Shown here piece after piece: positions 45,410 through 55,739 of a stretch of DNA of 64,000 nt. The stretch lies in the NCBI RefSeq assembly GCF_054482525.1, contig NZ_CM137006.1. One strand, 5' to 3'. The translations under genes were made by a program, and so were the position numbers. Position 1 is the stretch's first letter; each line of letters starts with the position of its first letter. The notes under the pieces are model-generated. The model was not told the origin of the DNA. It ran no database searches and saw nothing but the letters and a program-made list of their open reading frames with translations.

Positions 45410-46154
45410 TACACGCTATTCCTTGTGCAATCAGGCCAGCTCGCAATAAAGGCAGCAACTATGCTTGAAGCCCCTTTCACCGCCGGATAAATAATATCCT
45501 TACGGCAATTGGTAACCGTATAAAATGCTTGATGTTTTGAACTGCCGTTGACGAAGATGAAGTAATCTGCTTTTTTGGCAGCATCCAATAACGCATCAAT
45601 GGCAACGCGATCATTGTTGAGCTCAATTCATAGCGCCGGATACAATTTCAATAAGGCGTCTTTACCACGTTGCGTGGCATTTTTGTAATACTGTAAAACA
45701 CCCGCTTTTTCCCGCGGAGATTCCGATACAACGGAGACGTTACGCTTGCTGGTATGGTTTCTGTCGGGAGGGTACTACCGATATCCTTACAAACGTAGAG
45801 CTGTTCCATCATGCGTGCCAACAACAGCATACGGATATCCAACCGTTCCCAGCGACGTAGGAACATCTCGCGAATGTTAATCCAGTACTGTAGTCGGCGA
45901 TCGCTATCACCAGATTCACAATCATAAAGAACCTCTGCAATATCAAGAGTATACTTGAGAATTTATGTCGATTCATTTTTCGTGCACAACATTTCGATAG
46001 CTTCGAGGGCATCATGGTATTCTTTGTGACTGAAGGTCCATGAAAGTAACGTATCCAGAATAATCCCTGTAGTTGCCAAAATGAGTTGATCACTACACAA
46101 TGATTTGTTTGTACAGAAGGAACGATTATTATATGTTCTTGTAGGGCAGAGCAC
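45397..46154 (-). pseudogene. frame-disrupted remnants of a larger gene (possibly the yjhR-like gene that neighbours nanS in K-12)
   Basis: Four short minus-strand ORFs in three frames (45397-45588, 45648-45866, 45809-46093, 45963-46154); my translation across 45720-45400 reads ...SPREKAGVLQYYKNATQRGKDALLKLYPAL*IELNNDRVAIDALLDAAKKADYFIFVNGSSKHQ... with an in-frame TGA, i.e. a decayed C-terminal coding region. Confidence 0.4.
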
Positions 46155-46271
46155 GTTGCTACGGTAACAGCGTTGAAGATAATTTGGTCGAGACTGTAGT
46201 GGCCCAGTTTAAAAGGTAGCAGAATTTTAAAAGTGTCAGGTGCATAGAATTAAAAAAATGGAACTATAAAA

Positions 46272-48005
46272 ATGGAAATCATGTTACCAAAAAACACCTT
46301 ATATGACAGAGAGCAAAATGTCTTTTTTGAAAAGGTTACGGCCTTAATTGGCGAAAATGGTGCTGGTAAGTCCTCGATTTTACAATCCGTATTTATTAAC
46401 TGTTTAACAAAAAAATATCTACCAGAAACAAAGGTTGTTTGTTTTTCTTCTGGACAAAATGAGAAATACTCAACGTACTTCTCTGATTATCTTTCTCATG
46501 AAAGGCAAGCAAATAGAGGTCTTAACTTAGATTGTTGTTATTACGATAAATCATGGTCAAAGTTACTAATATTCATATCCACAATTTGTAAATCAAATGG
46601 TCTTGTTAGAAATTTTTTATGTGAGAAAGGCTATATTGATGTATCAGATGATAAAAATGATGATATATCAAGCAAGCTTACATTGACGGTCCGAGTAAAT
46701 TCGGCTTACGTTAATCGAGTAAAAATGGCATTAGCACAAGAAGAACAAGGTATTGAAAATACTTTAAGGTATTCAGCTTATCATAGGACTTTAGAAAGTT
46801 TCATTAATAATATTGTTAATGCTGATTATGATTTCGAGTCTCCACTTGAAGCTCAAGAGATCTTGCTAACTCATTCAAATTTTTTCAATCCATCATTTGA
46901 GGAAGCAGAAGATTCCTTTTTTGATCCTATCATAACATTTTTCACTCAAGCAGCAGATAATGATTACTTTATAATAAAACCATCATTACAGCTAGAGTTT
47001 AAAAATAATATCGAACTGAATGATATTAGTGATGGGGAATATCAAGTACTCTTTTTATACTCTCTGCTTGATATTTTTGATAGTCCTAATACTTTATTCT
47101 TATTAGATGAGATAGATTCCCATTTACATTACAAGAATATTGAGCTCTTATGGCATCGACTACATAGTATTAATGGTTATGCGATAACAACCACCCATCT
47201 ATTAGACTCAATTACAGCTACTGATAATGATTTTAAAAACTTAAAGATTGTTGATAAAGGAAAAATAAAAGAAGATGATAAAATAAAAACTATAATAGAA
47301 CGTTTATCTGTCTTGACAAGAATATCAGACGTACAGTTCGAAGTGTGTCGTAAACTAGAAAACATAGTATTGATGGATGATTATAATGATTGGACTATTT
47401 TTTATGCCTTAGCAAAGAAAAAAGGACTTGATGTATCAAAGTTAGATGGCCTCCATGCAATAAAACAGTCCTCTGGTTACGATAATTTAAATCAAGAGTT
47501 CGCAAAACCAAAAATAGAGTGGATTAATTCGCTTTCAAATGTAAATACTGATAAGAAAGTCAAAAAAATATTCATGATCTGCGACAAAGATGAGGCTCCA
47601 ATTACCTATCAGAAAGATGGAGTTCAAGTCAATGGAAGTGAATATTCAAAACATATAGCGAAGTTAGAAAATAAAAACAAAAATAAAATATATCTCCTTG
47701 CTTGGAAAAGAAGAGAAATAAAAAACTACTTATTATCTTATACGGCATTGTCTCATCATGGATTTATCGGGCAAATAAACAATGGTGATCTGCCGGCTAA
47801 CAGTTATTTAAAAGAAAACAATCCTGGAGATAATTCAGCAATTAGCCGGCTTAATGTAAAACATTGCATCACAAAAATAATTGATTCTGATGGTATAGGA
47901 TTAGATATCTCAAAACTTTACTCATATATAGAACTTATACCACCTGCTGAGATCAGTGAAGATATAGTGAACATGTACAATTTTTTGGTGGAGAAATTAA
48001 AATGA
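46272..48005 (+). CDS. ABC/SMC-type ATPase (AAA_21/OLD-like) with a C-terminal ~240-aa putative nuclease-like (TOPRIM/DUF4435/RloB-like) domain
   Basis: 577-aa ORF in very AT-rich DNA; Walker A GENGAGKSS (aa 27-35), Q-loop FSSGQ, signature-like DISDGEYQVL, Walker B/H-loop LFLLDEIDSHLH; C-terminal region with acidic clusters (VLMDDYND, FMICDKDE) and LAWKRREIKNYLL motif; start M1 vs M4 uncertain. Confidence 0.8.
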   Translation: MEIMLPKNTLYDREQNVFFEKVTALIGENGAGKSSILQSVFINCLTKKYLPETKVVCFSSGQNEKYSTYFSDYLSHERQANRGLNLDCCYYDKSWSKLLIFISTICKSNGLVRNFLCEKGYIDVSDDKNDDISSKLTLTVRVNSAYVNRVKMALAQEEQGIENTLRYSAYHRTLESFINNIVNADYDFESPLEAQEILLTHSNFFNPSFEEAEDSFFDPIITFFTQAADNDYFIIKPSLQLEFKNNIELNDISDGEYQVLFLYSLLDIFDSPNTLFLLDEIDSHLHYKNIELLWHRLHSINGYAITTTHLLDSITATDNDFKNLKIVDKGKIKEDDKIKTIIERLSVLTRISDVQFEVCRKLENIVLMDDYNDWTIFYALAKKKGLDVSKLDGLHAIKQSSGYDNLNQEFAKPKIEWINSLSNVNTDKKVKKIFMICDKDEAPITYQKDGVQVNGSEYSKHIAKLENKNKNKIYLLAWKRREIKNYLLSYTALSHHGFIGQINNGDLPANSYLKENNPGDNSAISRLNVKHCITKIIDSDGIGLDISKLYSYIELIPPAEISEDIVNMYNFLVEKLK

Positions 48006-49909
48006 ACACCTCTTTATTTGAAGATCTACTTACACTAATCAAGAAAAAGAGTTCGATAAGAAATACAGAGCAAGCAGTAGAGTTAATTTCATTATTTATT
48101 TTTTTACATTATATAAAATTATATCTTTATGAAAATGATAAAAGATTTTCAGATATAAAAAACATATCAAGCAACAACATTAATGAAATTAAATATTATT
48201 ACCAGCAACTATATGAAAGTTTTATTTTCTCGATAGATATAAAAAATATAAACCACGACATGCTTGAAAACCTCAGGAGTAAGATAGGTTTTTTAATTAA
48301 TAACATCAATGACCATGAAATAATTAAATATATAGATTATTCTATTTCGCAGATACATTCACTTACAGAATTCCATCAATATGCAAATTCTTATCAATCT
48401 TTAATTCTTAGGATGGTTAATGAATCGGGTCGTTCAGGTGAATATGTTACTCCATCTGCTTTAGTTCAGCTCATGGTTGAAATGTTATCACCTACAGATG
48501 GCACATCAATCTACGACCCAGCATGTGGAACTGGGGGTTTATTAATAGAGTCAGCACGATATATTAAAGGCAACAGTTTAAACAAAAACTTAAATTTAAA
48601 TTATTCCCTTATTGGTAATGACACATCATCATTTGCCTGTCTAATCTCAATTGTTAACCTTTTAATCAATAAAGAATTTAATTTTGAAATAATACTAAAA
48701 GATAGCTTAGATATAAATTATAAGAATAAAAAATATGACTTTGTTTTAACTAACCCACCATTTGGGAAAAAGAGCTGTTGGGATAATATTCATATTGACA
48801 CACATTATAAAGGACCTAATCTAGACTATTACTTCCTGGAGCATGTTATTGACTCTCTCGCTGTTAATGGCAAAGCAGCCATGATATTACCAGAGCGTTT
48901 TTTATATGATGTGAGTGAAGAGTGCATCACTCTTAAAGATAAGATCTTCCAAAATTATAATTTAGATTGTATTTTATCTATACCGTCAGGTGCATTGCTT
49001 CCTTACACTGCAGTAAAATTATGTATTCTTTTTATAAGTAATTCTGGCCCAACAGATAGAATATTTTTCTACAATTTAAATAATGGTGAAAAATACTCAC
49101 GTACAAATATTATAAAATTCGATGATTTTATAGATTTTTTAGAGTCAGCAAAAAATAGAACAATAACTGAACACTCCTGGATTATCAATATTAGTGATAC
49201 ACCTTCATCTTATAACTTACTCTTAAAAGATAAAGAGCGAAACTCATATGAGTTTCTTAGTGATTCTATAGTTAACATTGAACAGACAATACGTAATAAT
49301 GAATTATTACTAACAGAGTTGTCTTTATTAAGAGAAAAAATAGCAATCTTAGAGTCAACAATAAAAAATCATTCGCATGAATATGAATTTGAGAGACTTA
49401 AAGTTGGAAATATTGCAATAGTAAAATCCGGAAATTTATTACAAAAAAACAGGCTGTTACCCACTGGACCAATTCCTGTATACGGTGGAAATGGAGTTAT
49501 TGGATATAATAATGAAGCAATGGAAAATGGTGAAAATATTATTATTGGTAAGGTCGGAGCTCTTTGCGGAAACGTTCGGTATGTTCAAGGTGATATTTGG
49601 GTGACAAATAACTCATTAATTATTAAGAATTATTCACCAAATAAAGTTTTAACACCCTACCTTGCAAAATTATTATCTACTTTAAACTTAAGAAGGCTCG
49701 CCGTTGGTACCGCTCAGCAATATTTAACCACGACACAAATAAAAAATGTAGAAGTTAGTATTCCACCTTTAACGACCCAGTATAAATTAAATATTTGGCT
49801 TGATGAGTTAGATAATACGCTTGAACAATATAATAATCTCATTGAAAAAATAATGAATGATAAGCGAGAACTTAAAGAGAATTTGTATAAAGGTCTTTTA
49901 ATAGAATAG
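48002..49909 (+). CDS. N6-adenine DNA methyltransferase (HsdM-like, gamma class) fused to a single HsdS-type target-recognition domain (M-S fusion)
   Basis: 635-aa ORF overlapping the upstream ATPase gene by 4 nt (ATGA); motif X/I GEYVTPSALVQLMVEMLSPTDGTSIYDPACGTGGLL, motif IV FVLTNPPFGKK, then a TRD with HsdS hallmarks (GNIAIVKSGN...IPVYGGNGVIGY...IPPLTTQYKLNIWLDELDNTLEQ). Confidence 0.85.
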   Translation: MNTSLFEDLLTLIKKKSSIRNTEQAVELISLFIFLHYIKLYLYENDKRFSDIKNISSNNINEIKYYYQQLYESFIFSIDIKNINHDMLENLRSKIGFLINNINDHEIIKYIDYSISQIHSLTEFHQYANSYQSLILRMVNESGRSGEYVTPSALVQLMVEMLSPTDGTSIYDPACGTGGLLIESARYIKGNSLNKNLNLNYSLIGNDTSSFACLISIVNLLINKEFNFEIILKDSLDINYKNKKYDFVLTNPPFGKKSCWDNIHIDTHYKGPNLDYYFLEHVIDSLAVNGKAAMILPERFLYDVSEECITLKDKIFQNYNLDCILSIPSGALLPYTAVKLCILFISNSGPTDRIFFYNLNNGEKYSRTNIIKFDDFIDFLESAKNRTITEHSWIINISDTPSSYNLLLKDKERNSYEFLSDSIVNIEQTIRNNELLLTELSLLREKIAILESTIKNHSHEYEFERLKVGNIAIVKSGNLLQKNRLLPTGPIPVYGGNGVIGYNNEAMENGENIIIGKVGALCGNVRYVQGDIWVTNNSLIIKNYSPNKVLTPYLAKLLSTLNLRRLAVGTAQQYLTTTQIKNVEVSIPPLTTQYKLNIWLDELDNTLEQYNNLIEKIMNDKRELKENLYKGLLIE

Positions 49910-49989: not shown

Positions 49990-52900
49990 TTAATAATGCT
50001 CCTCAATATACCCATACGCCTTCTGGAACAACTCTTTATCTTTCCCTAGTCCAAACTGGGCCAAGGTCAGCAAAAGCGCCTTTTGGATTTCGCGCGGGCC
50101 ACTGTTAGAATTTTGCCAGCCATCAAAGCGGGTAGCTTTCACAATTTTATCAATTTGCTCTACAACATCACCGATTAACTTAGGGGTAGTTTCCGGACGT
50201 GTTTCGAGGAAAAGCTTAGTCAACGCCTGTTTATTATCAGCTTCAGTTACTGGACGCTCGCCCGTTTCGCGCTCGGCTTGAACGGTATCTTTCGCTGCAT
50301 CCAACAGGCCTTTCAACCAGTCAATGGCCTTGATAACACCAGCTTCATAGTCCTGACGCAGTTTTTCAAGGCGCTCGCCCAATGCCACAAATTTAGGATC
50401 ATGACTGCCGCGCAAACGTCCCATAAGATCAATCTCCAGGCGTTTAGCACGTTGTTCCTGCTCTTTAGCGGTCAGGGTAAAAATAGCGTGCTCGTCCATG
50501 ACCAACTCGTCAATATCATCGCGAATACGATTGATATCAGTATGCTCATGGATCATCTTGATTGTTTCGGGGCCAAGGGCAGCCCAAACAAGCGCACCTG
50601 TCTGCCCTACCGGACGCACCGATTCATAAATTTGCGCCAGCCATTTATAGTCCTGACGATAAGGGGTCAAAAAAGGGTCTGGGTTGATAGCTGACCATAA
50701 CTTGGATAACACACCAAAGCTGGCAGCGAATTCATCGCGCTTCTCGTTGGTCGGCAGGCATTCCTGCGCGGCCATAATACCTTCAAAACCAGCTATGGAC
50801 CGATCCACACCAGGGAAGAAGGACAAACATTTATTCAGTTGTAACGGCAATAGCTCTTTAAATGCCTCAATTCCCTCTACAACTCCTTCAATTTCTTCAG
50901 GGTTATAGGCCAGAGCGGTACGCAGATTTTCGAAAACGCCGAGGTAGTCGATAATTAATCCCATGTCCTTGCGTACAGTATCGGTTTCGTACAGCCGGTT
51001 AGTTCGGCACATGGCCTGCAGAAGGGTATGATCGCGTAGAGGCTTATCGAGGTACATGCAGTAGCAAATCGGGGCATCAAAGCCCGTAAGCAGCTTGGCG
51101 GTTACGATAATAAGCTGTAATGGATATTCAGGATCTTTAAAGCACTCAATTAGATCCTTTTGCACCTGCTCTTCGGCATCGATGTGCTGCCAGCGTTCAA
51201 AATCGACTTGTTTGACAGGCAGCTCCAACTCATCATGCCATTTAAGCCAATCCTTGTTGAGCTTGTCTTTTTTGCCACCCTCTTCAACTTTAATCGGAGC
51301 CTGGTCAACGTTCATAACCACTTCAACTGCATCAAAACCAAGCTTTTCACCGAGCAAATAATACATCTGCACACAGGCTTCGCGATCGTATACCACAACC
51401 ATGCCTTTCATCTTTTTCGGCATAACATGGTTGGTAAAATGCTCAGCAATATCATTACTCACCGCAGCCATACGTCTGGGAGATTTCAGCATAATAGCCA
51501 GCTTGCCGGCACGTCTGGACAATGCTGCTTTTTCTTCTTCATCCAGGTTGTTTTCGGTAGCCAGTTGCTCGAACTCTTCATTGATGGCATCACGATCCAC
51601 TCGGAGTTCAGCCAGCCGAGGTTCGAACTTCACCGGGTTAGTTGCGCCATCCCGGATCGACTGCTTATAGCTATAGCGGCTCATATAGCGACCTGGATCT
51701 TCTTCGGCACCGAACAATTTGAACGTATTACGATCAATGCCAGAAATCGGAGTACCAGTCAGGCCATAGAAGTGGGCATTGGGCAACGCCCAGCGCATTT
51801 TCTCGCCTAATCCCCCTTCCTGTGTACGGTGAGCTTCGTCAACCAACACAATGATATTGTCCCGGTTGTTCAGGCCATTAGGGTTGCTATCGTCAATTTC
51901 GATATCTTTAAATTTAAAGATGGTGGTGATTAAAATGCCACGGCTGTCTTGTTCAATGTATTCACCCAACTTTTTGCAGCTTTGCACTTTAATCAGATTC
52001 TTAACGTCGGCTCCACCAAAGGTCTCGTTAATTTGGCTGTCCAGATCTCGCCGGTCCACAACGATAAGTACCGTCGGGTTTTTTAACGCATTATCGGCAC
52101 GTAGCATTTTGGCGGCGTAAAGCATCAACAAGGATTTACCCGATCCCTGGAAATGCCAAATAAGACCTTTTTTTGGATAGCCTCTGCGAACACGCTCAAC
52201 AATTTGTTTTGCAGCTTCAAATTGCGGATAACGCGGCAAGATTTTAACGCGTTTAGGTGGAGTATTTTTGCCCGTTTTGACGGTTGAAAATAATGCAAAA
52301 GATTCCAGTAACTGCAATAAGGTTTGCGGATTTAACAAACTCTCACAGCTATTGAGTACCGATGCCAGACCCGGCAAAATTTCATCACGAAGCTCAGTAT
52401 TATGCCAGGGTCCCCAGTCTTTAACTCGGGCATTAATGGCTCCATAGGCAAAGGTTTTACCTTCGCTGGCAAAGCACAGCAAGTTAGGTACAAAGAAAGA
52501 TTCAACATTTTTCCAGTAGTACTTTTTGCCACCCATGAAATCGGCAGCACCGTCTTGCCAGGTCACGCTGGGGCGTGTTGCGGTTTTAACTTCGCCTACT
52601 ACCAGTGGCATGCCGTTCACATAAAGAACAATATCAAAATAGACTTCAGTGGCCGCGATATAGTGAACCTGCTGCGCCACTACAAAGTGGTTGTTCTCTA
52701 TATTGTCAAAATCAATCAGATTGATGGTGATATGGTCGCCATTCTTACCAAAAGGCAAGGTTTTGTCGGCCATCAACCATTCCTGGAAGTTTTCATTGGC
52801 CTTTACCAAGCCGGTATGGCGGGCTTCTAAAACCACTCCTCGCAGTTTGTAAATGACCTCATCGGCATAGTCAGGCTGTCTGCCGATATCAGGGTTTAAC

Positions 52901-53052
52901 GAACAAAGCGCGTCTTTTAGCCACTCATCAACGAATATATCCTGCGCTTGTTTAGGCAGGTTTTCACCGTGGCAGTAAGTCCACTTGACTCCGCTTAAAC
53001 CTTTTAAACGGTCGATAATTCCATTTTCTGTGACGGTTTGTTCGTTAAACAT
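49990..53052 (-). CDS. hsdR: Type I restriction enzyme R subunit (DEAD/DEAH helicase-nuclease)
   Basis: Track ORF 49990..53070 begins at TTG; ATG six codons in (MFNEQTVTENGIIDRL...) has AAGGAAAT RBS; Walker A HFQGSGKSLLM, DEAH box VLVDEAHRTQ; ~1020 aa. Confidence 0.9.
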   Translation of the reverse strand: MFNEQTVTENGIIDRLKGLSGVKWTYCHGENLPKQAQDIFVDEWLKDALCSLNPDIGRQPDYADEVIYKLRGVVLEARHTGLVKANENFQEWLMADKTLPFGKNGDHITINLIDFDNIENNHFVVAQQVHYIAATEVYFDIVLYVNGMPLVVGEVKTATRPSVTWQDGAADFMGGKKYYWKNVESFFVPNLLCFASEGKTFAYGAINARVKDWGPWHNTELRDEILPGLASVLNSCESLLNPQTLLQLLESFALFSTVKTGKNTPPKRVKILPRYPQFEAAKQIVERVRRGYPKKGLIWHFQGSGKSLLMLYAAKMLRADNALKNPTVLIVVDRRDLDSQINETFGGADVKNLIKVQSCKKLGEYIEQDSRGILITTIFKFKDIEIDDSNPNGLNNRDNIIVLVDEAHRTQEGGLGEKMRWALPNAHFYGLTGTPISGIDRNTFKLFGAEEDPGRYMSRYSYKQSIRDGATNPVKFEPRLAELRVDRDAINEEFEQLATENNLDEEEKAALSRRAGKLAIMLKSPRRMAAVSNDIAEHFTNHVMPKKMKGMVVVYDREACVQMYYLLGEKLGFDAVEVVMNVDQAPIKVEEGGKKDKLNKDWLKWHDELELPVKQVDFERWQHIDAEEQVQKDLIECFKDPEYPLQLIIVTAKLLTGFDAPICYCMYLDKPLRDHTLLQAMCRTNRLYETDTVRKDMGLIIDYLGVFENLRTALAYNPEEIEGVVEGIEAFKELLPLQLNKCLSFFPGVDRSIAGFEGIMAAQECLPTNEKRDEFAASFGVLSKLWSAINPDPFLTPYRQDYKWLAQIYESVRPVGQTGALVWAALGPETIKMIHEHTDINRIRDDIDELVMDEHAIFTLTAKEQEQRAKRLEIDLMGRLRGSHDPKFVALGERLEKLRQDYEAGVIKAIDWLKGLLDAAKDTVQAERETGERPVTEADNKQALTKLFLETRPETTPKLIGDVVEQIDKIVKATRFDGWQNSNSGPREIQKALLLTLAQFGLGKDKELFQKAYGYIEEHY

Positions 53053-53053
53053 T

Positions 53054-54241
53054 TTATATTTCCTTATCAATCATAGCTTGGCGCAGTTGAATAATTTTCC
53101 CCAAGGATTCATTGTGCCTATAAATATTCTCATACGAACACTTAAACGTATTAATGATTGATGCTTGAATATCGAAGGGAGGAATAGGAATTTGAATTTT
53201 TAAAAAGTTATCTTTATTTATTTTCTTCATACTTCCGCTAGTTCCAGCAGCAATACCTTGAATAGCTCGACGGCCATATGGAGACATCAGATAGTACATT
53301 AAAAACTCTTTTTTAATAAATTTTTCGTCAACAGCCAATCTCCACATCGTGTCTGGGAAAATCGTATTCCCATTGCCAGTCGATCCTTTATATTTTCCAA
53401 CTAAACCAACCAACTCCGCTGTATTAGAACGAGAGATTAACAAATCACCATCATTGCATGTTTTTCCTTTTAAAAAATGATCTTCTGTAATATTTTTTAA
53501 AGTAGTTTCTCTGAATCCTGATTTCGACAAACTATTTAGGTTCAGGACATAGTACCCAGTCCCGACTGCGGTTTCAACAGGAGAATATCCCCCTTCTGGA
53601 GAATCAATTAAAACATCTTTAATAGAACCAAAAGTCCATCCAACCGGAAGAGGAACACATTTATTCTCCCTCGAATCAAAGTAGTTATCAAAAGTCCGTA
53701 GACCAATAGCATATAATAATCTTTTAGCTGCTTTGAGAGCACTTAAATATAGAAGTTCTTTCTTTGCTAACGAATCAAAGATTATTAATGACGAGTATTG
53801 CTGTTCAATGCTCGGTATATTAACTTCTAGTTTATTTAAATCACTCCATTTTATTCGCGATGATAGCGAGCCGGCGGAATTTGCAATCACCTTTTCCATA
53901 AAAGAGGTTGATTGCATCAAGTGGGGTAAGTACCCATCCAATAAGTAGTTGTTTTTCCTTGGTTTAATTACCATTGCATCAGCAGAGCAAATACCATTAA
54001 TAGGGCTCACCGACACCCTTTTTAAATATGTATTTCGTCTACTAAAAATTATTTCGCCACACTTTACCTTAAAGGCTTGTGTTTTCAATTCAACGTCAGC
54101 CCCCCAATCATGAACATAAAAATAACCAGATTTCAAATGTTCCAACCCAATAAAATGCTTAGCATCGTCGCTTGTTGGGGAGATTCTAACCATAACCTGT
54201 TCAGCAAGATCACCAAATGTAACATTTCTTTTATTATTCAT
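53054..54241 (-). CDS. hsdS: Type I restriction-modification specificity subunit (two target-recognition domains)
   Basis: Track ORF 53054..54292; probable start MNNKRNVTFGDLAEQ at 54241 overlapping the hsdM stop; two TRD halves with a central conserved region; the stop lies within ~15 nt of the hsdR start. Confidence 0.85.
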   Translation of the reverse strand: MNNKRNVTFGDLAEQVMVRISPTSDDAKHFIGLEHLKSGYFYVHDWGADVELKTQAFKVKCGEIIFSRRNTYLKRVSVSPINGICSADAMVIKPRKNNYLLDGYLPHLMQSTSFMEKVIANSAGSLSSRIKWSDLNKLEVNIPSIEQQYSSLIIFDSLAKKELLYLSALKAAKRLLYAIGLRTFDNYFDSRENKCVPLPVGWTFGSIKDVLIDSPEGGYSPVETAVGTGYYVLNLNSLSKSGFRETTLKNITEDHFLKGKTCNDGDLLISRSNTAELVGLVGKYKGSTGNGNTIFPDTMWRLAVDEKFIKKEFLMYYLMSPYGRRAIQGIAAGTSGSMKKINKDNFLKIQIPIPPFDIQASIINTFKCSYENIYRHNESLGKIIQLRQAMIDKEI

Positions 54242-55739
54242 TATTATATTTCTCTCTATCAATTTCATAGCCAATGCTATCCAAGCTATCAAACAATACC
54301 TTGATATTTCTTTTGAGTTTTACGCTACTGACTTTCCATGATTCGATAGCATGCTGAATATCATTCATTTTGACATTGTTTTGAGATTTCACATAAAGTG
54401 AAATCGATAAATTATAGAAATTTTCTTTAATAGCTTCGATATCCACTAAAGCGGTTATGTCGTTTTTTTTCTCCGGATTAAAATAAGCCTCGCATAATAC
54501 TTCCAAATCATCATCAGATAGGCGACTATGGGCACGTTCACGGGTAACATACTCAACCCCGTTGATAAACAAAACCTTATTTTTGCGTTCAGCAGGTTTA
54601 TTGCAATTAAGCACCACCAAGCAAGATTCCATCGGCGAGTTGTAAAACAGATTTGGTCCCAAACCAATCACCGCTTCGATTATGTCGGATTCAATCACCT
54701 GTTTACGAATGGCTTGTTCAGAATCACGGAACAGTACACCATGCGGCCAGAGCATGGCAGCACGACCGGTGTCGGGTTTTAAACTTTTGATTATATGGGT
54801 ATAAAACGCATAATCAGCACAACCTTGTGGAGGCACGCCATAGAGATTACGCCCATAGGGATCGGCTGCAAACTTGTCACGATTCCATTTCTTAATGGAG
54901 TATGGTGGGTTAGCAAAAATCACATCAAACTGCTTGAGCCGATCGTTTTCAATAAACTTTGGCTCAGCCAAAGTATCACCACGCAGCACATCAAACTCTT
55001 CAATATCATGCAGGAACATATTCATACGAGCAATAGCGGAAGTCAGCAGGTTCACTTCCTGACCATAAAGGTGCACAGAGCGCCACTCTTCTCCTCTTGC
55101 ACGAAGATCCATCACTGCATTTAGCAACATCCCTCCAGTGCCACACGTTGGATCATAGGCTGTTTCACCCGGTTTTAAGCCCATAATGCGCGTCATTAAA
55201 TGCACGACTGTTCGGTTGGTGTAGAACTCTGCTGCCGTATGACCGGAATCATCAGCGAACTTTTTAATCAGGTATTCGTAGGCCTCACCAAGATCATCCT
55301 GAGCGACAGATTTAATACCGAGCGGTATTTTACTGAAATGTTCAATCAGATCAGCCAGCAGATGATCGGGCAGGCGCTCTTTATTGGTCCACTGCGCATC
55401 ACCGAAGACGCCATGTAAACGCGGATTATTGGCTTCAATTAGTCGAAGCGCATTCTGGATCGCTTCACCAATGTTTTTACTGGTATTGCGTACCTTTTCC
55501 CAACTGGCTTCAGAGGGAATATTGAAACGGTGAAACATCGGCATGGCGGCATATTCAGCATCACCTTCATGGAGTTCCAGCGCTTCGTTATATTCTTCCA
55601 GATAGACATCTGACAGGCGTTTGTAAAACAGCAACGGGAAGATATACTGCTTGTAGTCTGATGCGTCAATTTGGCCACGAAGAAATTCGGCGGCTCCCCA
55701 GAGCAGCTCTTCCAGCTTTTTATTACTCATAGTACTCAT
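54234..55739 (-). CDS. hsdM: Type I restriction-modification N6-adenine methyltransferase subunit
   Basis: 501-aa ORF; HsdM N-domain (LEELLWGAAEFLRGQIDASDYKQYIFPLLFYKRLSD), motif I DPTCGTGGML, motif IV NPPYS; motif X reads AEFYTNRT rather than the usual GEFYTPR. Confidence 0.9.
   Translation of the reverse strand: MSTMSNKKLEELLWGAAEFLRGQIDASDYKQYIFPLLFYKRLSDVYLEEYNEALELHEGDAEYAAMPMFHRFNIPSEASWEKVRNTSKNIGEAIQNALRLIEANNPRLHGVFGDAQWTNKERLPDHLLADLIEHFSKIPLGIKSVAQDDLGEAYEYLIKKFADDSGHTAAEFYTNRTVVHLMTRIMGLKPGETAYDPTCGTGGMLLNAVMDLRARGEEWRSVHLYGQEVNLLTSAIARMNMFLHDIEEFDVLRGDTLAEPKFIENDRLKQFDVIFANPPYSIKKWNRDKFAADPYGRNLYGVPPQGCADYAFYTHIIKSLKPDTGRAAMLWPHGVLFRDSEQAIRKQVIESDIIEAVIGLGPNLFYNSPMESCLVVLNCNKPAERKNKVLFINGVEYVTRERAHSRLSDDDLEVLCEAYFNPEKKNDITALVDIEAIKENFYNLSISLYVKSQNNVKMNDIQHAIESWKVSSVKLKRNIKVLFDSLDSIGYEIDREKYNNE

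Follow-up and report, generated by a model that had tools for sequence, protein, structure and literature searches.

An OLD-family ABC ATPase-Toprim protein paired with a methyltransferase-specificity fusion: an uncharacterised, putative two-gene phage-defence cassette of Escherichia coli

The stretch of DNA analysed here (64,000 nucleotides of contig NZ_CM137006.1, RefSeq assembly GCF_054482525.1; the whole of it is called the window below) is identical in sequence to the chromosome of Escherichia coli PCN033 and carries a cassette of two overlapping genes. The first encodes an ABC ATPase of the OLD family with a predicted Toprim nuclease domain, and the second an N6-adenine methyltransferase fused to a single target-recognition domain (M-S fusion, for modification and specificity). 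The pair matches none of the named systems tested, yet it belongs to a known theme of ABC-ATPase/Toprim proteins linked to restriction-modification (R-M); it is an uncharacterised phage-defence module and not one unprecedented in kind. Its two genes have stayed together in at least 13 genera, which is far beyond chance. Our preference, a tentative one, is that the ATPase-Toprim protein acts as a latent nuclease tethered to the methyltransferase. The two genes are:

46272-48005, plus strand: gene 1, open reading frame (ORF) of 577 aa, OLD-family ABC ATPase fused to a predicted Toprim nuclease
48002-49909, plus strand: gene 2, ORF of 635 aa, M-S fusion N6-adenine methyltransferase with one target-recognition domain

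The products correspond to WP_000404909.1 (labelled 'AAA family ATPase' in RefSeq) and WP_001097954.1 ('N-6 DNA methylase'). A preliminary description of the window, made from the letters alone, had delimited both frames and their overlap, and we recovered exactly the same coordinates and junction. The latter reads AAATGAAC, in which the start of gene 2 (ATG) and the stop of gene 1 (TGA) share the four nucleotides ATGA, and a GGAG is found about 10 nt 5' of this ATG. The strong AT bias reported there is equally real, with a GC content of 0.29-0.33 at 46-50 kb against 0.44-0.48 on both flanks. In PCN033 the locus lies within a defence-rich variable segment, downstream of fim and nanCMS. Of 5426 complete E. 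coli genomes, 102 have a match to the ATPase/M-S region (95-100% DNA identity, 80% or more of the length), always in the chromosome, and both genes are annotated in all 20 of the records listed from these 102. No match to the ATPase-Toprim family was found in phage records.

The Pfam domains recognised in the product of gene 1 were AAA_21, SMC_N and ABC_tran only, all of them pointing to an ABC ATPase. The relevant regions of the protein are:

46350-46373, plus strand: Walker A (P-loop) GENGAGKS, aa 27-34, with K33 invariant in an alignment of 58 sequences
46452-46991, plus strand: inserts within the ABC head, aa ~61-240, where the family diverges fastest
47028-47123, plus strand: ABC signature S253-D-G-E-x-Q258, Walker B D279-E280, D-loop D282 and H284, all invariant columns
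47304-48002, plus strand: C-terminal Toprim-like nuclease domain, aa ~345-577, outside the coverage of Pfam and PADLOC
47376-47390, plus strand: first acidic motif D369-x3-D373, consensus [E/D]-x3-D-W in the alignment of the C-terminal domain
47583-47591, plus strand: Toprim DxD motif D438-K-D440 within I-C-D-[KR]-D, with D438 and D440 invariant

Across the 58-sequence family alignment the Walker A residues G27, G30, G32, K33 and S34, together with S60, N63 and E64, are invariant or nearly so, and the same holds for S253-D254-G255-E256 and Q258 of the signature, D279-E280, D282, H284 and H309. The earlier assignment to the ABC/SMC-type ATPases, with conserved Walker A, signature, Walker B and H-loop residues, is therefore well founded.

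The C-terminal 230 aa are less easily classified. They matched no Pfam family, either in the query or in 35 homologues (the OLD-like TOPRIM model included), no PADLOC model even at E = 10, and no sequence in the PDB. When the domain alone was searched exhaustively against 1.8 billion cluster representatives, 120 clusters only were retrieved, and most of the full-length matches were proteins of 565-750 aa carrying the domain at their C terminus, so that it constitutes a small and dedicated domain family. Four motifs could be aligned throughout: L-[IVM]-[ED]-[DN]-x-x-D-W, I-C-D-[RK]-D, W-K-R-R-E-I-E-N-Y-L-L and E-I-S-E-D-I. Position 369 is always D or E, and D373 and the following W are invariant. 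The spacing of D369, D373, D438 and D440 is that of the metal ligands E26, D30, D88 and E90 of AriB (PMC11464382). The full-length AlphaFold2 model of the protein (mean predicted local confidence, pLDDT, of 92.3) had as best PDB matches GajA, the OLD nuclease of T. scotoductus (Ts OLD), the OLD protein of retron Eco8 and PtuA; for the C-terminal domain, T. scotoductus OLD and the Eco8 OLD nuclease appeared among the lower-ranking matches. Outside its own family, a Foldseek search against AFDB50 recovered AAA_21-fused C-terminal domains, DUF4435, DUF4276 and 'OLD protein-like TOPRIM' proteins. Judging from these structural models, the C-terminal region can confidently be predicted to adopt an OLD/AriB-type Toprim fold with conserved acidic metal-ligand residues. 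An N-terminal ABC ATPase and a C-terminal Toprim fold bearing E/D...DxD acidic residues, the features expected of an OLD-family nuclease, are thus both present. The nuclease-like C terminus suggested by the preliminary description thus stands, though without the Pfam TOPRIM or DUF4435 match that might have been expected, and the Toprim family to which it belongs (about 120 clusters at 50% identity) has no Pfam model.

Gene 2 was simpler to interpret, with two domains recognised by Pfam:

48389-49198, plus strand: N6_Mtase catalytic domain, aa 130-399 (PF02384, E 5.9e-42)
49385-49852, plus strand: single HsdS-type target-recognition domain, aa 462-617 (PF01420 Methylase_S, E 2e-15)

The target-recognition domain is flanked by helical spacers, and PADLOC matched the protein with its generic Type I methyltransferase and specificity models only (MTase_I 1e-63, Specificity_I 4e-26). 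Motif I (Y171-D-P-x-C-G-x-x-G179, here YDPACGTGG) and motif IV (N251-P-P-F-G255) show conservation of 98% or more among 52 family members, and for this reason the methyltransferase is expected to be active. By its sequence the product is, as originally described, a gamma-class N6-adenine (m6A) methyltransferase fused to one HsdS-type recognition domain. It carries half an HsdS and would presumably work as a homodimer resembling the M2S core of Type I enzymes. About 55 clusters of M-S homologues, 620-643 aa in length, make up a discrete family, beyond which scores fall to those of ordinary HsdM. Within this family the best-conserved segment is the target-recognition domain, with 46-61% identity in distant members compared to 36-50% for the methyltransferase core and 14-35% for the N terminus. 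The HsdM_N domain was not detected by Pfam in the M-S fusion and was detected in the HsdM of the four-gene relatives described below, to which the first ~106 aa of the fusion do not align.

A way to approach the function of the cassette is to examine the company that its genes keep in other genomes. The neighbourhoods covered were 49 species-level GTDB loci and further loci of full-length ATPase homologues. The GTDB scan was seeded with the peptide motif W[KRH][RH][RK][EQ]I[EK]NY, a choice that under-samples divergent members, and HsdR was recognised from phmmer matches to four reference proteins (E < 1e-6); among the loci, L060 was left unresolved and L065 is atypical. In approximately 41 of the 49 species-level loci the ATPase-Toprim gene is an internal gene of a complete EcoAI-family Type I operon: the order is hsdR (~771 aa), ATPase-Toprim, hsdM, hsdS, the intergenic gaps are 1-4 nt, and the hosts range from Gammaproteobacteria to Bacteroidota and Cloacimonadota. 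The HsdR of these operons is annotated as EcoAI/FtnUII family and retains the D...EAK nuclease motif. The persistence of a complete HsdR in the same operon indicates that the OLD-like protein is not an ancestral replacement of HsdR, and the proposal of the preliminary description that the ATPase-nuclease takes the place of this subunit finds no support here. Conversely, EcoAI-family hsdR genes on 53 of 57 plasmids lack an ATPase-Toprim gene, which makes the latter an accessory of one EcoAI-type subclade and not a core subunit.

The really constant partner is the methyltransferase. The gene directly following the ATPase encodes a Type I-like methyltransferase (HsdM or M-S) in 48 of the 49 GTDB loci and, without exception, in the further loci, with a gap of 1-4 nt or an overlap. 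Because this happens across methyltransferase lineages that are only 27-32% identical (the ATPases being ~50% identical), we consider that the methyltransferase, not HsdR, is the invariable associate. In most genera (about 10 of 13), and in the window itself, pairs of the M-S type directly adjoin an hsdR (1020-1104 aa) that belongs to an unrelated and complete Type I system; this was seen in E. coli, Salmonella, Vibrio, Raoultella, Klebsiella, Acinetobacter, Pseudoalteromonas, Snodgrassella and Chryseobacterium. In Vibrio, Raoultella, Klebsiella, Pseudoalteromonas and Snodgrassella the genes run M-S-R-ATPase-MS on a single strand. Standalone pairs, by which we mean those with no Type I gene within 9-10 kb, a distance that does not cover the rest of the genome, were found in Desulfovibrio (a metagenome-assembled genome, beside Fic proteins and an MbeA-like relaxase), Pectobacterium and Cellvibrio (on an integrase/RepA island), two of them being on mobile elements. 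According to the preliminary description, a pair always found together with a helicase R subunit would be an ordinary Type I fragment. The association proved to be the rule, both in the operons and in the genera just mentioned, and the standalone pairs show that it is not universal; the co-occurrence of the two genes, on the other hand, is that of a genuine, conserved and translationally coupled unit.

In every host the pair has a GC content of 27-38%, even where the remaining locus is at 52-55%, and differs from the adjacent Type I genes, which argues for an independent unit. In the window these adjacent genes belong to a complete and convergent Type I system, outside the cassette:

49990-57337, minus strand: complete Type I R-M system (ORFs, RefSeq annotation; GC 0.35-0.48)
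49990-53070, minus strand: hsdR (ORF)
53054-54292, minus strand: hsdS (ORF)
54234-55739, minus strand: hsdM (ORF)
55736-57337, minus strand: second hsdM (ORF)

This two-hsdM system is present in 109 of the 5426 complete E. coli genomes, versus 102 for the pair, and strain A33 has it at the leuX island without the pair. Its own composition and its absence in A33 mark the pair as a separable, horizontally mobile cassette that tends to land beside Type I systems. M-S fusions occur also inside R-ATPase-MS operons of Bacteroidota (L053, L054), and the M-S cassette is an offshoot of the wider R-ATPase-M-S (EcoAI-type) family.

Within that four-gene family the subunits have diverged very unequally. 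HsdR and HsdM are 85-99% identical across genera and HsdS only ~30%, the normal hypervariability of a specificity subunit, and the identity of the ATPase spans 45-95%. Two allele types of the ATPase-Toprim gene (590 and 598 aa, 45% identical) occupy the same operon slot in hsdR/hsdM backbones that are 93-98% identical (L038, L039, L041 and L043 compared to L002). The divergence between the two alleles is concentrated in the ABC inserts, aa 61-240, with 17-33% identity (17% over aa 131-240), against 68-81% for the N terminus and the C-terminal helices. To judge from the alignments, the two-allele pattern suggests cassette-like recombination or strong diversifying selection. Such mosaic divergence is what might be expected of a trigger-sensing surface engaged in an arms race, and the region around aa 61-240 is a candidate sensor; ABC inserts have been proposed as diversified trigger sensors of defence ATPases (bioRxiv 10.1101/2024.01.29.577857).

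Some features of these loci deserve a separate mention. The AT-rich non-coding gap of 860 bp between nanS and the ATPase gene in the window (45410-46271) contains weak sigma-70-like matches only (e.g. 46156-46183, TTGCTA-16-GATAAT) and no regulator gene, while the four-gene relatives have a helix-turn-helix gene upstream. In about one third of the R-ATPase-M-S operons a protein of ~672 aa is encoded after hsdS (L002 12512-14530; also in L006, L018, L034, L042, L044, L045, L055 and L056). Pfam, PADLOC and the sequences of the PDB gave no match to it. Its N terminus resembles a GHKL/Bergerat ATPase (EAVVNS, DNGCGF, GxxGVGR) and the protein may be a MORC-like fifth component. In Cellvibrio fontiphilus (L068, 13877-20016) the pair adjoins genes for a protein with a faint HATPase_c match, for Multi_ubiq, ThiF and BubE (a Bub-like, ubiquitin-type set) and for a zeta toxin, and upstream of it are an AAA_15/AAA_21 ATPase and a 236-aa unknown protein.

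The similarity of gene 1 to described defence proteins is confined to its head. PADLOC matched the full product with 54 families, and among the best 25 of these the matches were partial and restricted to the ATPase head, including those to AriA, mad3, AbiLi and PtuA; NCBIfam gave nothing above cut-off. The absence of a named equivalent, already suspected in the preliminary description, is confirmed to this extent. PARIS is among the closest. It has an ABC ATPase head, and AriA gives the best PADLOC match (E 1.1e-14, 53 bits, aa 22-297); the acidic residues of gene 1 are spaced as those of AriB, whose fold is also similar; and there is a thematic tie to Type I R-M through the sensing of anti-restriction. 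Fused single-protein forms of PARIS do exist (PMC9122126). The fused AriAB model, however, matches the product of gene 1 weakly and over aa 239-295 only (E 2e-6), the PADLOC AriB and AriAB models have no match to the C-terminal domain, and the DUF4435 Pfam model matches none of 35 family members. PARIS is typically carried on P4-type satellites. It needs no methyltransferase, whereas the ATPase-Toprim family described here is followed by a Type I-like methyltransferase gene.

PrrC, which is documented as a guard that responds to the anti-restriction peptide Stp (PMC12707154), is comparable in its architecture (an N-terminal ABC-type NTPase and a C-terminal nuclease), in its location within a complete Type I operon, as in most of the ATPase-Toprim relatives, and in its obligate association with R-M proteins. 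The differences are nevertheless clear. The nuclease here is of the Toprim type and not the anticodon nuclease (ACNase) domain of PrrC; the gene lies between hsdR and hsdM, while prrC lies between hsdS and hsdR; the Type I family that hosts it is EcoAI/Type IB instead of Type IC; and the E. coli cassette brings an M-S fusion of its own without a dedicated HsdR. The PrrC model did not appear among the best 25 of the 54 families matched with PADLOC nor with NCBIfam. As for GajA and the retron Eco8 OLD protein, the partner here is a methyltransferase and not a UvrD-type GajB helicase or a retron, and the sequence similarity to GajA (PADLOC) is confined to 40-70 residues around the ATPase motifs. 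HEC-04 is also an ABC ATPase fused to a Toprim and embedded in methylase-containing defence operons, but this gene, one of those that Payne et al. found by 'guilt by embedding' (bioRxiv 10.1101/2024.01.29.577857), belongs to Hma systems and works alone; its model was not among the best 25 of 54 PADLOC matches and none matched the C-terminal domain. For PDC-M62A, PDC-M01A, PDC-M25A, PDC-M38A and HEC-01A there were short P-loop or signature matches only.

The methyltransferase resembles the M2S core of Type I enzymes in its HsdM-like catalytic domain and its HsdS-type recognition domain with helical spacers, and the nearest relatives outside the M-S family are ordinary HsdM proteins. It departs from it in having M and a single target-recognition domain in one chain, against a separate HsdS with two, and in that this domain is hyper-conserved, not hypervariable. 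A classical Type I system was discarded, as the cassette has no dedicated superfamily 2 (SF2) HsdR and the adjacent hsdR is convergent, of other GC content and part of a complete M-M-S-R set. We rejected also Gabija, the neighbours being nanS and the M-S methyltransferase with no UvrD-like gene in the annotated 36-kb region, and Type IIG/IIB/ISP, the M-S protein carrying only N6_Mtase and Methylase_S with no fused nuclease or helicase; the exclusions of Gabija, Type IIG/ISP, BREX and DISARM had been made in the preliminary description and were upheld. MADS was set aside as well, with partial matches only, to mad2 (methyltransferase) and mad3 (ATPase motifs, aa 239-316). Its detection rule makes mad6, mad7 and mad8 mandatory (bioRxiv 10.1101/2023.03.30.534895), and the RefSeq annotation shows only the Type I M-M-S-R genes and other named defence genes around the cassette, neighbours that were not scanned with the mad6-8 models. 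The theme itself is published. It takes in PARIS with its fused forms and HEC-04 with the other genes found by embedding (PMC9122126; bioRxiv 10.1101/2024.01.29.577857), as well as defence genes that lie inside Hma, BREX and Type I systems, and PMC12839542 credits Krishnan et al. (2020) with 'OLD-ABC + TOPRIM' modules in R-M-like contexts. The literature covered makes no mention of these proteins by accession; Krishnan et al. (2020) lies outside that coverage and may describe the clade.

How could such a pair work? We lean, with somewhat less than even confidence, towards a guard against anti-restriction of the kind known for PrrC and PARIS. By analogy to PrrC on EcoprrI, the ATPase-Toprim protein would be a latent nuclease held and silenced by the methyltransferase core. 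A phage anti-restriction factor (a DNA mimic of the Ocr/ArdA type or an Stp-like peptide) would engage or disrupt this core, an ATP-dependent rearrangement of the ABC head would then free or activate the Toprim nuclease, and the latter would cut tRNA or DNA, aborting the infection as PARIS does. The complex, its trigger, its substrate and the abortive outcome are all inferred. Since approximately 41 of 49 loci encode an intact HsdR upstream, a second, back-up nuclease fits the PrrC precedent better than a replacement of HsdR. The guard reading fits also the fast-evolving inserts and a target-recognition domain that does not diversify; the conservation of this domain, set against the ~30% identity of HsdS in the relatives, looks unlike a primary restriction specificity subunit. 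The best sequence-profile matches of the ATPase head, AriA (1e-14) and AbiLi with PADLOC, point in the same direction. There are, on the other side, observations that a guard does not accommodate easily. The M-S protein keeps invariant AdoMet-binding and catalytic motifs, which a pure bait would not need and a self-protecting R-M module would. The standalone pairs indicate that no restriction enzyme has to lie nearby for the cassette to guard, even if the bait in them could be the M-S dimer itself. In PARIS, Ocr is sensed directly by AriA and no methyltransferase is required, so that the likeness to PARIS leaves the obligate methyltransferase partner unexplained. Moreover, conserved target-recognition domains are normal in fixed-specificity systems of the Type II or Type III-like kind.

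The main rival is a self-contained R-M-like system, the model of the preliminary description, in which restriction would fall to the OLD-type nuclease and not to an SF2 HsdR. The M-S homodimer would methylate a fixed, probably symmetric bipartite site and, at unmodified sites, would recruit the ABC ATPase-Toprim protein, which would cut DNA. The translational coupling of the genes, the invariance of motifs I and IV in 52 homologues (expected if methylation protects self DNA), the standalone cassettes of Desulfovibrio, Pectobacterium and Cellvibrio and the distinct composition of the pair all speak for it, and OLD-family and GajA nucleases do cut DNA (PMC11464382; bioRxiv 10.1101/2024.01.29.577857). 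We regard it nonetheless as somewhat less likely than the guard, given that most family members share the operon and the same methyltransferase with a complete HsdR nuclease-translocase, that the pair lies directly beside hsdR in most of the genera, and that Type I-like specificity domains normally diversify, in contrast to the one found here. A broader formulation, possible but doubtful in our opinion, is that of a hitherto unrecognised and self-sufficient two-protein class of ATP-dependent R-M or guard systems, with an M-S dimer controlling an OLD-family ABC-ATPase/Toprim nuclease. The nuclease would be either a restriction subunit acting on unmodified sites or the effector of a methyltransferase-shaped bait that turns the attack of a DNA-mimic anti-restriction protein into nuclease activation. 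If this were true, the same nuclease would be the regular fourth subunit of the EcoAI-type Type I subclade. The two proteins might also have nothing to do with each other, the ATPase-Toprim protein being an autonomous defence (of the class 1 OLD or HEC-04 type) hitch-hiking in R-M operons and the M-S protein an orphan or auxiliary methyltransferase, which may even provide a second specificity to the neighbouring HsdR. HEC-04 does defend alone from within Hma systems, and unrelated defence genes are commonly embedded in Type I operons (bioRxiv 10.1101/2024.01.29.577857; PMC12255303). The single-strand order M-S-R-ATPase-MS of five genera is the reason to think that the M-S protein could share the neighbouring HsdR. 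An absence of coupling is however improbable when the ATPase is found directly upstream of the methyltransferase across phyla and methyltransferase lineages, was never without an adjacent methyltransferase in ~60 loci, moves with it as a single compositional unit and conserves the 4-nt overlap; the N terminus of the M-S protein, with neither a Pfam-detected HsdM_N nor an alignable first ~106 aa, weighs against it too. We give hardly any credence to a decaying remnant, an ordinary Type I fragment left by a R-ATPase-M-S operon after the loss of hsdR and with no function of its own. The pair does descend from that family (the ATPase is 53% identical to that of L002), but both ORFs are intact with catalytic residues conserved across at least 13 genera, the 102 complete E. 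coli genomes match at 95-100% DNA identity and the M-S proteins are a discrete, well-conserved family of ~55 clusters, so that conservation largely refutes this explanation.

If the coupling is true, this would be the first Type I-like methyltransferase core found as the dedicated partner of an OLD/PARIS-type ABC-ATPase nuclease; it would connect R-M with OLD/PARIS/Gabija, both of them large defence families, and provide a simple two-gene model for trigger sensing by ABC ATPases. In any case, EcoAI-type Type I systems include a conserved variant with four genes (R-ATPase-M-S), which is widespread in Gammaproteobacteria and Bacteroidota and goes unrecognised by current annotation (Pfam, PADLOC, NCBIfam). 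From a practical standpoint, the cassette is present in many Salmonella and in ~2% of the complete genomes of E. coli, and may influence the host range in phage therapy and the efficiency of transformation.

The surroundings of the cassette in the window contain other genes of interest. The neighbouring Type I system has two tandem hsdM paralogues (501 and 533 aa) before hsdS and hsdR, an M-M-S-R layout that appears also in Salmonella (L014) and Vibrio crassostreae (L010). Past it, the region around 57533-63816 is a defence island with a frameshifted TIR-domain gene, a 329-aa 'restriction endonuclease' and a 1171-aa helicase-like AAA protein with weak PLuB/ProA-like matches; just beyond the end of the window, in the PCN033 locus (L001), there are an HNH endonuclease and a copy of IS2. 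Much further upstream, a 799-aa pentapeptide-repeat protein in a patch of 33-40% GC (10192-12591) is followed by a 1746-aa inverse autotransporter adhesin, IatC-like (15146-20386), and a further low-GC patch at 25-26 kb contains a 276-aa ORF without NCBIfam match.

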